Source: Promethearchaeota archaeon
GTDB lineage: Archaea; Asgardarchaeota; Lokiarchaeia; Sigyniarchaeales; SOKP01
Reading direction: 5' to 3'
Length of the DNA stretch: 24,913 bases
NCBI GenBank assembly: GCA_048938895.1
Contig: JBHLLU010000056.1
Span: 1 to 24,913 of the forward strand
The notes beneath the pieces were generated by a model. The model saw only the letters and a program-made list of their open reading frames with translations. It did no database searches and was not told the DNA's origin. How positions within the stretch are numbered: position 1 is the first letter of the stretch; each line of letters opens with the position of its first letter. This document shows, piece by piece, positions 5,708-11,575 of this stretch. The position numbers and the translations under genes were made by a program.

Positions 5708-6208
5708 TTATTCATTCTCTAAAATTAGGTGTCTTGCGAAATTAACTAAACCATCAGCAGAAATTATCTCTTCTATAAATGATGGGATCTTATTAAATAT
5801 AAGTTCAATATTTTTAGAAAGATTTTTTACAATCCCTTTGGTAAATATAATTTCCAAATCATCACCTGTAGTAATAGCTTTAATATTTTGAAGTTCAACA
5901 ATGGGTAAGCCTATATTTATTGCATTTCTAAAGAATATCCTTGCAAAAGATGGTGCAATTATGCATTTCATACCTGCTGATTTAAGAGCAATGGGTGCCT
6001 GTTCTCTACTTGAGCCACATCCAAAATTTGCGTCAGCCACTAAAATTGAATAATTAAATTTTTTTGTTTTTTCCATAAAATTGGCATCCAAATCTTCCAT
6101 ACAGTGTTTGGCTAAATATTCAGAACTTGAGTTAGTTAAATATCTTGCTGGTATAATAAGATCTGTATTTAAGTCTTTCATATCATATTTTATAACCTTA
6201 CCAATCAT
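5708..6208 (-). CDS. leuD: 3-isopropylmalate dehydratase small subunit
   Basis: Motifs DLNTDLIIPARYL, NFGCGSSREQAP and SFARIFFRNAINIGLP. The specificity loop YLTN lacks the Arg of HacB-type YLRT. Alternative GTG start at 6211. Confidence 0.88.
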   Translation of the reverse strand: MIGKVIKYDMKDLNTDLIIPARYLTNSSSEYLAKHCMEDLDANFMEKTKKFNYSILVADANFGCGSSREQAPIALKSAGMKCIIAPSFARIFFRNAINIGLPIVELQNIKAITTGDDLEIIFTKGIVKNLSKNIELIFNKIPSFIEEIISADGLVNFARHLILENE

Positions 6209-6218
6209 CACATTCCCT

Positions 6219-7493
6219 CTATATATCTTCTGGTGATGTTATGTATCCCTTAACCGCTGAAGCAGCAGCGATTGCAGGATTTGATAAATATACTTCACTT
6301 TCAATATGACCCATCCTCCCTACGAAATTTCTATTTGTTGTAGAGATTGCTTTTTCTCCTGCAGCAAGAATACCCATGTGCCCTCCCAGACAGGGGCCAC
6401 AGGTTGGTGTTGAAACAATAGCACCCGCATCAATGAAAACCTCTATTATACCTTCTTTTAAGGCTTGAAGATATATCTGCTGAGTACCAGGTATAATTAT
6501 ACACCTTACATTTTGATTAATTTTATGTTTCTTTAAAATACTTGCAGCAACCTTCAGATCCTCAATCCGACCATTGGTGCAAGAACCTATGATCGCTTGA
6601 TCTATATCTATTCGCATATTACTAACTTCTGAAATAGGCTTTGAATTTTCAGGTAAAGATGGTAAAGCAACCTGGGGTTCGATGCTTTTACAATCTAATT
6701 CTATAGTCTCGATATATTCTGCATCAGTGTCACTTCCATAGATTTTATATTTAGAAATAGTCCTCTTTTCTATATAATCTAATGTAATCTTATCAGGTTC
6801 TATTATCCCATTTTTAGCGCCTGCTTCAATTACCATGTTACAGATTGTTAATCTATTATCCATTGATAAGTTTCTAATAACATCCCCTGCAAATTCAATT
6901 GTTTTATAAGTTGCACCATCAACACCTATTTTTCCAATAATATACAGAATCAGATCTTTCCCCGAAACCCATTGATTTAATTTTCCTGAAAATATAAATT
7001 TCATCGACTCAGGTATTTTAAGCCAACATTTTCCTAATGCCATTGCGACACCTAAATCTGTAGAACCTACACCAGTAGAAAAAGCACCTAACGCTCCATA
7101 TGTACAAGTATGAGAGTCAGCACCTATAAAAAGATCTCCTGGTGAGACTAATCCTTGTTCTGGTATAAGACAGTGTTCAATCCCACCGCGACCAACTTCA
7201 AAATAATTCAAAATATTATATTTTTGAGCAAAATCTCGGAGTATTTCACACTGTATTGCTGAGGCAACGTCTTTACTAGGTGTGAAATGGTCTGGAGTTA
7301 AAATGATGTTAGTATTATCAAAAACACTTTTTTCTGTGCCTTCAATAACTTTTTCAAAAACTTCGAATGCGATTGGTGCTGTAATGTCATTTGCCAAACA
7401 TCGGTCTATCTTAGCCAAAATAAAATCTCCTGCTACTGCAGATTTATTCTCACAGTGATCTCTTAAAATTTTTTCAGTTATAGTTAATCCAAT
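6219..7493 (-). CDS. leuC: 3-isopropylmalate dehydratase large subunit, 424 aa if started at ATT 7493
   Basis: Motifs DHFTP, GADSHTCTYGA, NMVIEAGAK, IGSCTNGRIEDL, CGPCLGGHMG and STTNRNFVGRMG. The conserved N-terminus xGLTITEKIL lies 25 codons upstream of the ORF-track TTG at 7418. Confidence 0.9.
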   Translation of the reverse strand: MGLTITEKILRDHCENKSAVAGDFILAKIDRCLANDITAPIAFEVFEKVIEGTEKSVFDNTNIILTPDHFTPSKDVASAIQCEILRDFAQKYNILNYFEVGRGGIEHCLIPEQGLVSPGDLFIGADSHTCTYGALGAFSTGVGSTDLGVAMALGKCWLKIPESMKFIFSGKLNQWVSGKDLILYIIGKIGVDGATYKTIEFAGDVIRNLSMDNRLTICNMVIEAGAKNGIIEPDKITLDYIEKRTISKYKIYGSDTDAEYIETIELDCKSIEPQVALPSLPENSKPISEVSNMRIDIDQAIIGSCTNGRIEDLKVAASILKKHKINQNVRCIIIPGTQQIYLQALKEGIIEVFIDAGAIVSTPTCGPCLGGHMGILAAGEKAISTTNRNFVGRMGHIESEVYLSNPAIAAASAVKGYITSPEDI

Positions 7494-7550: not shown

Positions 7551-9173
7551 TTAGCTATTAGACGAGTTTTTTTTCTTAACTATCAAATTTAATCCCTTGA
7601 GAAGGGAAAGCACTGAACTCATTACAATATCTTCATGAGTGGCACTTGCCTTTACAATGTGATTGCTTTCAATATCCATGATTTCTATAGTAGTATGTCC
7701 TAACGCTTCGGTTCCCCCTGTTATTGCATCAATTTGGTAGTTCAGAAGTTTTATCTTACTCATTGGTTCGAAGCATTTTATGATTGCATTCACTGATGCA
7801 TCTACAGGTCCCACTCCCACCGAAGATGCTACCTTTTCAATACTATTCCCATTATTATCAATTTTTAAACGTACTGTTGAAGTAGGAGTAATTGAACCGG
7901 TTAAAACAGTTAACTCCTCGAGTTTCACAAATTGATCTTCTATAGGTAATTCCTCAAAAACATCTTTCAGAATTGCATAGAAATCTTCTTCTGTTACTTC
8001 ATGTCCTTTATCACCAAATGCTTTAACGTGTCCCATAATGTTAGAGAATTGTTCATCTGTTGTATGAATTCCTAGATCTTCTAATTTTGCCTTAAGAGCA
8101 TGTCCCCCAGTATGTTTTCCTAATTTTATCGATTGTTTAATTATATCCTCAACATTATCAGAACGCCTAATTCCTATTAATTCAGGGGTTATGGGTTCAT
8201 ATGCACGGGCATGTTGAATCATTGCATGCGCATGTATCCCAGATTCGTGAGCAAACGCATTCTGACCAATTAAGGGACTTAGACGACCAATAATAATTTT
8301 CCCCCCACATAGACTTTCTACTAATTTTGCAGTAGGAAAAATCAATTTTGTATTGATATTCATCGGGATCTGATACAAAGCATAAAGAGACATAGCGGTT
8401 TCTTCGAATGATGCATTTCCTGCTCTTTCTCCTAAACCTAATATTGTAGTTTGGGCTTCTGAAGCACCATTTTCAAATCCTGCTATTGTATTTGCCACAC
8501 CTAAGCCAAAATCATTATGGCAATGAACAGCAATCCTTACATTTTTAGGGAGTGATTCATAATTTTTTCTTACAATATGTCCATACGCGGTAGGAGAAAC
8601 TGTTCCTACAGTGTCTGGAATATTTATTCTCGTAGCTCCGCTTTCTACAGCTGCTTGATTCACATTAATTAAATAATCTAAATCTGAACGTGTAGCATCT
8701 TCAGCTGAAAACTGTATTTCATTATAATGTTCTTTGGCATAAGCAACCAATTCTGACACACTATTTCGTACTTCTTCTCTTGTCATTTTTAGTTTTTCTT
8801 TTAAGTGGAGATCTGAAGTAGCAATAAAAAGATGGATTGAATCCATATCTGCTTCAATTACTTTATCAATATCAATTTTTTTAATACGAGCTAACCCTAT
8901 TATCTCTGAATCTAATCCTAATTTTGAAATTTCTTTACAGGCGTCAAAATCTCCCTGAGAGATAACTGGAAATCCTGCTTCAATAACATCTATACCTAAT
9001 TCATTTAATGATTGAGCAATAGATAACTTTTCTTTTAAGGTAAAACTAATCCCAGGAGTTTGTTCACCATCCCTAAGTGTAGTGTCAAAAAAGTAGGCTT
9101 TCTGAGGTAAAATTAAATTTCCTCGTATTTTTTCCATCATGTCTGAGACCATAATGTCGGTTTTTTTATTCAT
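7551..9173 (-). CDS. leuA: 2-isopropylmalate synthase / citramalate synthase (LeuA/CimA family) with C-terminal regulatory domain
   Basis: Motifs DTTLRDGEQTPG, IEAGFP, FSAEDATR, PDTVG, HCHNDFG, GLGERAGN, AHESGIH, LGKHTG and regulatory GVGPVDA. LeuA versus CimA cannot be resolved by eye. Confidence 0.85.
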   Translation of the reverse strand: MNKKTDIMVSDMMEKIRGNLILPQKAYFFDTTLRDGEQTPGISFTLKEKLSIAQSLNELGIDVIEAGFPVISQGDFDACKEISKLGLDSEIIGLARIKKIDIDKVIEADMDSIHLFIATSDLHLKEKLKMTREEVRNSVSELVAYAKEHYNEIQFSAEDATRSDLDYLINVNQAAVESGATRINIPDTVGTVSPTAYGHIVRKNYESLPKNVRIAVHCHNDFGLGVANTIAGFENGASEAQTTILGLGERAGNASFEETAMSLYALYQIPMNINTKLIFPTAKLVESLCGGKIIIGRLSPLIGQNAFAHESGIHAHAMIQHARAYEPITPELIGIRRSDNVEDIIKQSIKLGKHTGGHALKAKLEDLGIHTTDEQFSNIMGHVKAFGDKGHEVTEEDFYAILKDVFEELPIEDQFVKLEELTVLTGSITPTSTVRLKIDNNGNSIEKVASSVGVGPVDASVNAIIKCFEPMSKIKLLNYQIDAITGGTEALGHTTIEIMDIESNHIVKASATHEDIVMSSVLSLLKGLNLIVKKKNSSNS

Positions 9174-9205
9174 TTCATTTAACCTTCTTAAATTTCATTA
9201 AAGTT

Positions 9206-9310
9206 TAACCCCCTCTCCTTTTCTATGAGAGAAAACGTAAGTCTTCTTCCATAGGAAAAAAAGGGTTATAATAATAATAATAAATCCAAAGTTAATTCAT
9301 TTAAACACAA
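9206..9310 (-). promoter_or_regulatory. Candidate leucine-sensing leader: Leu-rich uORF, U7 tract and long hairpin upstream of leuA
   Basis: Minus strand reads TTG TGT TTA AAT GAA TTA ACT TTG GAT TTA TTA TTA TTA TTA TAA, then CCCTTTTTTTCCTATGGAAGAAGAC-TTAC-GTTTTCTCTCATAGAAAAGGAGAGGGGGTTA (stem 9206-9268). Confidence 0.6.
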
Positions 9311-9550
9311 TCCTAATGAAGAGGAGCGCTTCGAAAAATTTTGAAGTGCAGAATTACTTATTTGTTGAAGCTTTTTCAAATCTCTCACATCAATAGAATC
9401 ATATTTTATAAAATAAATTATTTGTACTTTTAAAAACATTATGGTCATTATTTTCCAATTTTTAGAAATTCAATTGGGGAGAATTATTCCTTAACGCTTT
9501 TTATATCAAACTCATTTCTTTCAATTAGAAAAGAATTTGGTTATTTACAA

Positions 9551-10231
9551 ATGAAAAAAATAAATAAAATTTTAATTGGAGCTATTGCTTTTATCGCATT
9601 GTTTACAGTTTTAAGCACAAATACAGTGTTAGCATCAGAATCTTCTATTGATGTAAATGGTGATACCTATCAATATCAAGTCCAAGCGAATCATAGTGTA
9701 ATGTTCTCATTTCGACAGAGGACAAGATTAACCTTTGCTTCAAATGTTAATATTGAAGCAAACATCAATTGTGACGCATTGAGAATCGGTGTCAAGTATT
9801 TTGAAATGGAAGTTAACTGTGATCAAGATTTACAAATGAATATGACTTGTACTGAGGAACAAGTTCAACTAGGATTATTAAAAGGAGAAAGATATACAGT
9901 TAGAAATCGTCATAGACTTTTATATCAAGAAGGATTTTGTGTTTCAATTCAATGCAATAATTCAGGTGATATACAGGCTAAATTGAAGATACAAGCAAAC
10001 AATCAAAATCGAAAGGGAACATGGGCTTATTACGATGAGACTGCTGAAGAATGGGTTGGAGTTCCAACTACTGTGGAGGATGGATATTTAGTTACTGAAA
10101 CAGATCATTTCTCATATTGGACAATATTGAACCCCGAATCAGAAGATAATATCTTTTTATACATAGGGCTTATCAGTATTATTGGTATTCTTGGCGTGCT
10201 TACAGTTGTTCTTCTTAGAAGAAGAGAATAA
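9551..10231 (+). CDS. Secreted/cell-surface protein with signal peptide, beta-rich domain, HFS motif and C-terminal TM anchor
   Basis: MKKINK followed by a hydrophobic stretch and VLA signal peptide. WAYYDETAEEW...ETDHFSYWTIL. C-terminal TM followed by RRRE. Confidence 0.75.
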   Translation: MKKINKILIGAIAFIALFTVLSTNTVLASESSIDVNGDTYQYQVQANHSVMFSFRQRTRLTFASNVNIEANINCDALRIGVKYFEMEVNCDQDLQMNMTCTEEQVQLGLLKGERYTVRNRHRLLYQEGFCVSIQCNNSGDIQAKLKIQANNQNRKGTWAYYDETAEEWVGVPTTVEDGYLVTETDHFSYWTILNPESEDNIFLYIGLISIIGILGVLTVVLLRRRE

Positions 10232-10309: not shown

Positions 10310-11575
10310 TTGGGTTTTAAAGAATTCACTAACAGGACAAGGCGAAGAGCAAGCCTAATATTATTATTTTTATTCCTTATTGAGATAAATTTAGTTTTTT
10401 CAAATGCTTTAGCCCGAGTAGAGAATATTGCTGGGTTTCAAACGTCTGATACTGTTAATCCAAATGAATTTGTATCTTATCGTTTTCCAAATAATCTAAT
10501 TTTCGAAATCAATACAACTTCAAGGATAGAGCTCTCCATAGAATATGAAACTAAAATGAATAATCGTCAGAGTTTTTTTTCTATTAATACTAATGAAACA
10601 GTTTCATTACATATAACATCGAAAACACAAATGAAGAGTTATGGCTTTTCTCAAGCACCTAATTCTCCAAAAAAAGGGAATTTTAAGTTAAGGTATCAAT
10701 ATAATTGTATTTTTAAAATAAGAGCAAATTCAACAATAAAAAATCTCACAGTAATGTATCGAAAAATTAATCAATTTGGTTTAAGCTCAAAAATAAACTA
10801 TACATTAGCGAAATATGATTTAAGTCAAGATTCATGGGAATTAGTTGAGACAGAAGAAAAATTAAATCAAAGCGTCTCAGAGTTATACTTAGTAAGTTCT
10901 CTTTCTGAAATAGAAAGTGATACTGATTATTATATAACTCTTTTTGAATTTACTACAGAAAAATTCGATTGGACTTGGGTTATTTTTACAATTGTGATAG
11001 TTGGGGCATCACTCCTTTCGGTAGCTTTTTTAATATCAAAAAAAGATTATTTCCAGTATTTAAGACAAAGAACAGTGTCAATTGAGAAAGGTGCTCACAG
11101 ATTATCTTTAGACGAAGTATTGGAAAATGAGAATAGAAATAAAATTATCGATTTAATACTAAATGAACCGGGAATCCATTTTAATGAATTATTAAGAAAA
11201 ACTGGACTTGCTGCCGGAAATTTAGTATGGCATCTTGACATATTACAAACTTTTAAAATAATTGGAAAAAAAAGGATAGGGAATTTTATCGCATATTTTC
11301 CTTATTACCAGAAGAATCCAATTTCTAATATAGACTTGAAATTGCAGAAGAGTAAACTTACTTTAGAAATTTTGGAAATCATTGAGAAAGAACCCGGAAT
11401 TTGGAATAACCTAATAACTAAGAAATTTAAAGTAGACCATAAGACGATACATTATCACTTGAATAAATTACAAAATCTAGGGCTTATAAAATTAAAAAAA
11501 GATGGGAGAAAAAAAAAAATTTTTCCAAACCTTGAATCAGAATATTATAAATTTAAAAATGGGAACGATGATTAA
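10310..11575 (+). CDS. Membrane-anchored transcription regulator: extracellular domain, TM helix, cytoplasmic tandem winged-helix domains
   Basis: N-terminal signal/TM. TM WTWVIFTIVIVGASLLSVAFLI. Two wHTH repeats: ENENRNKIIDLILNEPGIHFNELLRKTGLAAGNLVWHL and EILEIIEKEPGIWNNLI..VDHKTIHYHLNKL..LGLI. Confidence 0.8.
   Translation: MGFKEFTNRTRRRASLILLFLFLIEINLVFSNALARVENIAGFQTSDTVNPNEFVSYRFPNNLIFEINTTSRIELSIEYETKMNNRQSFFSINTNETVSLHITSKTQMKSYGFSQAPNSPKKGNFKLRYQYNCIFKIRANSTIKNLTVMYRKINQFGLSSKINYTLAKYDLSQDSWELVETEEKLNQSVSELYLVSSLSEIESDTDYYITLFEFTTEKFDWTWVIFTIVIVGASLLSVAFLISKKDYFQYLRQRTVSIEKGAHRLSLDEVLENENRNKIIDLILNEPGIHFNELLRKTGLAAGNLVWHLDILQTFKIIGKKRIGNFIAYFPYYQKNPISNIDLKLQKSKLTLEILEIIEKEPGIWNNLITKKFKVDHKTIHYHLNKLQNLGLIKLKKDGRKKKIFPNLESEYYKFKNGNDD

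Follow-up and report, generated by a model that had tools for sequence, protein, structure and literature searches.

The leuA-leuC-leuD operon of the Asgard archaeon analysed here is probably controlled by a leucine-sensing leader peptide, i.e., a ribosome-mediated attenuator. The element is a small open reading frame (9379-9266, minus strand) that lies directly upstream of the three genes on the same strand and closes with a run of leucine codons. Its reading as an amino-acid-sensing leader peptide is strongly supported by comparative evidence; no RNA run containing this DNA was listed for window positions 8700-9480, and in the absence of expression data both translation of the leader and its response to leucine are inferred. 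The signature of ribosome-mediated attenuation is recognised because the leader ends in leucine at a leucine operon and has isoleucine and tryptophan equivalents at their own pathways. A preliminary description of this DNA had proposed a leucine leader-peptide attenuator, and both comparative tests of that proposal were positive. Leucine runs with synonymous changes in a conserved frame precede leuA in all 51 usable related loci. Analogous leaders, kept in relatives, are found elsewhere in the genome, for isoleucine before citramalate synthase and for tryptophan before the trp operon and trpB2.

The leader reading frame and its leucine codons

The window, i.e., the whole stretch of 24,913 nucleotides that was analysed, belongs to a genome of 4,649,629 bases (4.65 Mb) in 174 contigs, with 31% G+C. 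Its minus strand reads, in order, TTG 9310-9308, TTG 9289-9287, GAT, five TTA codons and TAA, and a gap of 92 nt separates this stop from the ATG of leuA (9173-9171). The (TTA)5 run and TAA from 9283 to 9266, and their distance from leuA, were described as such before and are plainly seen in the sequence. The start is a different matter: it had been placed at TTG 9310, giving 14 amino acids, or at TTG 9289, giving 7, whereas the start column of the alignment holds ATG for the majority of relatives, with TTG 9379 in its place in the window. Because TTG 9379-9377 aligns with the ATG of the relatives, the leader is taken to comprise 37 codons (Table 1). An in-frame GTG at 9388 is an alternative start, and the frame of the leucine run is open for 60 codons from ATG 9448, forming a 60-aa ATG ORF. 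The leader has no strong Shine-Dalgarno sequence of its own. Upstream of it, TTTTTAAAA is a candidate TATA box by inference only, no transcription start site having been mapped; relatives show a similar TATA-like element at equal distance. The leuA product carries the HMGL-like, HCS_D2 and LeuA_dimer domains. Pfam returned no match for the leader peptide, and no Rfam family reached its gathering score in the window.

The window also encodes, some 1.1 kb upstream of leuA, a 421-aa protein (10310-11575, plus strand) with C-terminal HVO_0163-type and winged-helix HTH domains. It is possibly a transcription regulator, and no link to the leader has been shown. Between the two lies a 226-aa ORF (9551-10231) pointing away from the leader.

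Table 1. Features of the leucine leader locus and of the related leaders elsewhere in the genome. Positions without a prefix are those of the window.
Feature	Position	Strand	Basis or remark
Candidate TATA box, TTTTTAAAA	9428..9436	-	read from sequence; ~25 nt 5' of P1 5' strand
P1 helix, 5' strand (5' UTR, upstream of leader start)	9390..9401	-	pairs with 9308-9319
P1 helix, 3' strand (leader codons ~21-24)	9308..9319	-	alignment pairing
P2 helix, 5' strand (leader codons 3-5)	9365..9372	-	pairs with 9327-9334
P2 helix, 3' strand	9327..9334	-	alignment pairing
Leader ORF, 37 codons + stop, TTG start, MKKLQQISNSALQNFSKRSSSLGLCLNELTLDLLLLL	9266..9379	-	start column alignment; Leu run in 51/51 loci
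Five TTA Leu codons (sensor codons), final sense codons of leader	9269..9283	-	sequence and codon signature
Leader stop TAA	9266..9268	-	sequence
P3, long hairpin abutting stop	9211..9265	-	C9265 to G9211; dG -23.7 kcal/mol
Shine-Dalgarno of leuA, GAAGGT, inside conserved motif AAATTTAAnnAGGTTAAA	9182..9187	-	
leuA, 2-isopropylmalate synthase, 540 aa	7551..9173	-	NCBIfam NF002085, 565 bits vs cut-off 517
leuC, 3-isopropylmalate dehydratase large subunit	6219..7418	-	TIGR02083, 653 bits vs cut-off 611
leuD, small subunit	5708..6211	-	3' of leuC
Ile-rich 21-codon leader, MRLVLIPIVGITILLIIIGII	G000:C75:6612-6677	-	106 nt before citramalate synthase; locus L099
Citramalate synthase (cimA), first step to isoleucine	C75:4886-6505	-	TIGR00977, 684 bits vs 450
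Trp leader, MSTVKIFSWRWQCWWRV	G000:C53:28352-28405 = L157:6953-7006	-	195 nt before trpD ATG (L157:6757)
Second Trp leader, MKLATTPEWCWQWPWRWR, 5 Trp	G000:C67:9640-9696 = L159:241-297	+	148 nt before trpB2
Stand-alone trpB2-like gene	L159:446-1861	+	behind MKLATTPEWCWQWPWRWR
Arg-rich small ORF, ...PRNQRSARRRR	G000:C75:13064-13159 = L160:1665-1760	-	119 nt before argJ-like gene

The closest public leuA loci are 74-95% identical and come from Promethearchaeota/Promethearchaeia MAGs, i.e., Loki-type Asgard archaea. Fifty-two related Promethearchaeota loci were retrieved, and 51 of them are usable; L068 is not, as it lacks the 5' end of leuA. Each of the 51 contains a small ORF with a terminal leucine run in an open frame, with 4-8 leucines among its last 8 codons and with the stop 82-132 nt, mostly 87-98 nt, from leuA. 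A search of genomes of the same order found a leucine-run ORF in 11 of the 16 loci having upstream sequence, its stop mostly lying 86-94 nt before leuA (362 nt in L009, which contains Ns); the five loci without one are L012 and those of the G+C-richer families f3 and f4. Besides the 51 loci, four loci of the sister family f2 have a small ORF ending in a leucine run, as does the single-contig sister-family genome G055. The sets of 16 and 51 loci share some genomes and are not independent, because some of their records are the same genomes. In five other Asgard families, no ORF with a Leu, Ile or Val run was found within ~750-870 nt upstream of leuA homologues (18 loci); leuA may not be the first gene of an operon there.

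The codons themselves reveal what is being conserved. When the final 8 codons of 53 unique leaders are pooled, 333 of the 424 specify leucine, and positions -1 to -4 are leucine in 47, 49, 51 and 50 of the 53 leaders, respectively. All six leucine codons are in use (TTA 243, CTT 38, TTG 19, CTC 19, CTA 12, CTG 2), and phenylalanine accounts for only 3 of the 424. TTR outnumbers TTY by 262 to 3 and CTY outnumbers CTR by 57 to 14, in a genome where TTT makes up 78% of the phenylalanine codons and TTA, the commonest leucine codon, 46% of the leucine codons. Because TTY is avoided and CTY is freely used, selection acts on the encoded leucine rather than on a U/A-rich RNA; at the level of codon usage, the comparison shows that selection keeps the end of the leader ORF coding for leucine. 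The remaining two frames of the run read mainly Tyr/stop or Ile/Phe/Thr. A shifted isoleucine frame, previously considered as a fit to a CimA role, is not the conserved one, and the isoleucine leader lies elsewhere, before cimA.

These observations refute the idea that an AT-rich trinucleotide repeat merely happens to precede leuA. A genome with 31% G+C in which TTA is the preferred leucine codon would be expected to lend itself to such accidents, and the preliminary description had cautioned that (TTA)n arises easily in AT-rich DNA. Yet runs of (TTA)≥5 on either strand occur at just 6 loci in the 4,649,629 bases, the leader run included, so that the leucine run cannot be regarded as a common AT-rich microsatellite. 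Moreover, the run recurs in the 51 related loci with non-TTA leucine codons in the same frame, and chance retains practically no standing as an explanation.

Conserved RNA helices P1, P2 and P3

Three helices accompany the reading frame, and covariation in the alignments shows that all three are conserved, as far as comparison of sequences can establish. P1 and P2 are nested and enclose the leader start. In a plain MAFFT alignment of 49 sequences (A4), 71.3% of the cells of P1 and P2 are paired, versus 33-48% when the partners are slid, and 18 of the 20 pairs show changes on both sides. The P1 duplex has an average z-score of -2.4, with 27 of 53 values below -2, and P2 covaries through forms such as CUUCAA/UUGAAG, ACUCAA/UUGAGU and CCUCAGA/UCUGAGG. 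The P3 hairpin forms in all 53 unique leaders with a mean dG of -19.6 kcal/mol (range -27.9 to -10.7), beginning 0-5 nt and ending ~50-58 nt past the stop. In A3 (47 sequences), every one of its 19 pairs is changed on both sides and the share of paired cells is 84.4%, versus 64% in shuffles and 47-60% with slid partners; this alignment was fitted to a covariance model and leans towards structure. The stop codon had been described as the first pair of the hairpin, but P3 begins at C9265 and abuts the stop instead. Because P3 starts 0-5 nt past the stop, a terminating ribosome must open its base.

Other structural searches delimit what can be said of these helices. A covariance model built from 15 genus-level sequences (R1) has matches where expected in the window and in 50 of the 51 loci, and none in 28 outgroup leuA loci from other archaeal phyla, in L012 or in L014-L017. 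As a guide to distribution it is poor, because it misses L062 and the four sister-family leaders L009-L011 and L013. RNAalifold returned no structure on a global MAFFT alignment of whole leaders, a null result attributable to the varying length of P3; on the genus-level alignment, it recovered the outer P3 stem only.

The two arms of P3 differ markedly in composition. The 5' arm is 83% pyrimidine, CU-rich and anti-Shine-Dalgarno-like, and the 3' arm is 81% purine, GA-rich and Shine-Dalgarno-like, often followed by GTTAAA like the true leuA ribosome-binding site (RBS). This composition is never flipped in any clade among the window and 52 relatives. Such strand asymmetry is not explained by a purely structural role and remains unexplained. 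A second mini-ORF 3' of P3 (MKFKKVK, ending beside the leuA ATG) was considered and rejected, as four relatives, inspected by eye, have no start there.

Counterparts for isoleucine, tryptophan and possibly arginine

A genome scan for a codon run followed by a stop, a hairpin and a gene returned 31 candidates. Among them is a reading frame rich in isoleucine before cimA (Table 1). On the 3' side of its stop, a small hairpin (the stop plus AATTTC with GAAATT) competes with a longer one, GAAATTTTAAACTC/GGGTTTGAATTTC. Of 25 orthologous loci of the order, 15 have such a leader before cimA when at least 5 Ile are required among the last 10 codons. In L108, a 16th, the stop is replaced; L107, a 17th, is cut by the contig end, and the 8 G+C-richer or distant loci have none. 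Isoleucine takes up 98 of the 150 final codons (ATT 84, ATA 9, ATC 5), and ATG does not occur among them. In the sister family f2 (G036:C350, L011/L121; G055:C1:3541929-3545493, L158/L120), cimA lies directly 3' of leuA on the same strand. The presence of an isoleucine leader in the leuA-cimA gap of this family implies two sensors in series, perhaps on one transcript.

Tryptophan is represented twice. The operon behind MSTVKIFSWRWQCWWRV has the order trpD-C-F-B-A-E-G, and this leader contains 4 Trp in 17 codons, tryptophan making up 1.1% of codons genome-wide. Its RNA would form a GGCGT/ACGCC hairpin with the stop in the loop, followed by a long-range helix of ~17 bp. Leaders precede the trp operon in all 11 assessable relatives (15 loci fetched), eight with 3-4 Trp and three with 2, and their last Trp codons pair with the sequence just 3' of the stop. 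The second leader, MKLATTPEWCWQWPWRWR, precedes a stand-alone trpB2-like gene, and at least 3 Trp among the last 12 codons are found in 20 of 30 orthologous loci. At least one single-contig genome of the sister family, G055, carries leucine, isoleucine and tryptophan leaders together.

An arginine leader is only a weak candidate. The small ORF in question precedes a gene that we take to be argJ-like from its sequence, without a family call, and has 6 Arg in its last 11 codons, using both CGN and AGA. The peptide is recognisable in 3 close relatives, where it has only 2-4 Arg; a count of 4 Arg is reached in 3 of 8 loci. In the same genome, no leader was found before hisG, three other HMGL paralogues, the TPP enzymes, ilvC, two ilvD genes, leuB or the pheA cluster. 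At G000:C123, a Trp-rich frame turned out to lie antisense to a Pro-rich ORF and was discarded, and scanning the genome generically for short ORFs rich in rare residues gave too much noise.

The biosynthetic genes for Leu, Ile, Trp and Arg are themselves patchy across the order. At E≤1e-100, leuA was found in 7 of the 24 further genomes from the same genus. Across the order, 19 of the 80 other genomes searched have trpE, and trpB2 is present in 72 of 81. Many relatives in the order may be auxotrophs.

The run of codons matches the pathway at four separate loci, i.e., Leu at leuA, Ile at cimA and Trp at both the trp operon and trpB2. This match is what neither a membrane peptide nor a riboswitch would predict, and it makes it very improbable that the ORF encodes a functional small hydrophobic protein, or that the helices form a protein- or ligand-binding element, with a leucine run that senses nothing. 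The conservation of the peptide beyond the run (e.g., SLGLCL), a tail as hydrophobic as those of small membrane proteins and the very existence of three conserved structures would all be compatible with such a function. However, much of the peptide conservation 5' of the run overlaps the strands of P1 and P2, and this coincidence indicates that it reflects constraint on the RNA. Moreover, the peptide has no Pfam match and the region no Rfam family.

A possible read-out and its relation to known leaders

How a stalled ribosome would be read out is far less certain than the leader itself. In one alternative, the ribosome stalled in the leucine run frees the leuA RBS from an inhibitory pairing, and the controlled step is the translation of leuA rather than the completion of its transcript. 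The same logic has been reported for C-terminal codon tracts in mycobacteria (bioRxiv 10.1101/834739), and the minimum free energy fold of the window does pair the leucine run with the A/U-rich spacer 3' of P3. However, the leucine tail is no more complementary to the RBS region than expected from partners that are shuffled or mismatched (mean z +0.32, with 0 of 53 below -2; -5.8 kcal/mol with the own partner versus -6.3 kcal/mol with crossed ones), and pairing between the P3 5' arm and the RBS is likewise unsupported (mean z -0.08, 2 of 53 below -2). The modelled unpaired probability of the RBS rises slightly, from 0.55 in the free RNA to 0.63 with a ribosome on the leucine run and 0.61 with a ribosome at the stop, and a stalled ribosome raises accessibility by more than 0.1 in 20 of 53 leaders. 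Translational control is disfavoured because most of the RBS is unpaired whether or not a ribosome is stalled, and we regard it as unlikely.

Classical transcription attenuation fares no better in its bacterial form. No second, mutually exclusive structure was found: the ORF middle and the 5' arm of P3 pair with a mean z of -0.5, and 3 of 53 values lie below -2. This pairing looked plausible by eye in two clades and is unsupported across the 53 leaders. Nor is a role of the hairpin as a bacterial-type terminator supported: no terminator-like site is called at P3, which is followed by only 2-4 U, and 36 of 53 leaders lack any T≥5 tract between the stop and leuA. Given these results, no intrinsic terminator is conserved, be it of the bacterial or of the canonical archaeal type. 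The possibility that the spacer contains a second leuA promoter was set aside, by inference only, as its TATA-like motif is too near the conserved ATG.

What these results leave is a model of transcriptional control that rests on analogy and geometry only. The transcript would start 5' of P1 and comprise, in order, the leader start enclosed by P1 and P2, the five leucine codons and the stop, P3 directly past the stop, an A-rich spacer of ~35 nt, the RBS and leuA. When charged tRNA-Leu is scarce, the ribosome is inferred to stall in the leucine run just 5' of P3, allowing P3 to form behind RNA polymerase; when leucine is plentiful, it would reach the stop, where its leading edge would prevent the G+C-rich base of P3 from closing. 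Intact P3 would then be the ON state, as the bacterial 2:3 antiterminator suggests by analogy: it would pack the untranslated spacer, hide the pyrimidine-rich 5' arm and shield the uncoupled polymerase from premature termination or cleavage until a ribosome loads on leuA. This termination or cleavage would probably be factor-dependent, of the FttA/aCPSF1 type. Termination of archaeal elongation complexes takes place at oligo(dT) tracts or through FttA, a factor that favours U-rich nascent RNA and requires transcription to be uncoupled from translation (PMC13681488). The scheme keeps the logic of the 2:3 antiterminator and would dispense with the 3:4 terminator hairpin. That intact P3 acts as a stall-permitted anti-terminator is a tentative proposal, to which we give somewhat less than even credence.

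Leader-peptide attenuation is the textbook case of bacterial transcription-translation coupling, and the enterobacterial leuL, trpL, ilvL and hisL are classical ribosome-mediated transcription attenuators with leader families in Rfam. As in these systems, the archaeal leader is a short same-strand ORF directly before the first biosynthetic gene, has consecutive cognate codons and belongs to a family serving several amino acids in one genome; as with region 2 of trpL, a helix starts within the ribosome footprint of the leader stop. The Asgard leader differs in its host and in having no Rfam match at gathering score. Unlike leuL-type leaders, it also lacks a terminator hairpin with a U run and any demonstrable alternation of antiterminator and terminator, its sensor codons are the very last of the ORF, and the additional helices P1 and P2 enclose its start.

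Two further systems invite comparison. Leaders of the tnaC type control factor-dependent (Rho) termination, and tnaC senses free tryptophan via the nascent peptide rather than tRNA charging; archaea, to our knowledge, lack Rho. Common to tnaC and the Asgard leader are a decisive ribosome position at or next to the leader stop and a pyrimidine-rich stretch directly 3' of it. The archaeal counterpart of Rho would be FttA/aCPSF1 (PMC13681488), whose role here is inferred. Leaderless short ORFs with polycysteine tracts in mycobacteria, the 'Cys ribulon', likewise use codon tracts of a single amino acid to control cognate operons via ribosome pausing; in that system, the stalled ribosome keeps the downstream RBS from being sequestered in a duplex (bioRxiv 10.1101/834739). 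Such a duplex, the mark of translational attenuators including the erm/cat leaders, was not found in the Asgard leuA leaders. Altogether, the leader resembles leuL, trpL, ilvL and the mycobacterial polycysteine short ORFs in function. It falls outside the bacterial RNA families, since it lacks an Rfam match, a terminator and any demonstrable alternation.

A search of full texts, supplements excluded, retrieved no paper on leader-peptide attenuation in archaea; the matches concerned bacteria or unrelated uses of 'leader peptide'. These Asgard archaea very probably gauge their amino-acid supply with the ribosome, a form of control so far described only in bacteria. The leaders supply natural sensors for Leu, Ile and Trp and annotate small ORFs missed by gene callers. 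As a set for several amino acids, they offer a concrete and testable case for asking if the ribosomes of archaea regulate transcription or the fate of transcripts, and they bear on how archaeal control could work without bacterial-type terminators. The single-contig genome with leucine, isoleucine and tryptophan leaders means that this question may be open to experiment. It is possible, though we hold it as a rather doubtful extrapolation, that Loki-type Asgard archaea possess a ribosome-read regulon covering at least Leu, Ile and Trp, possibly Arg, in which a stall-permitted hairpin would counter termination or cleavage by FttA/aCPSF1. If true, this would be the first natural regulatory use of archaeal transcription-translation coupling, in the lineage closest to eukaryotes.
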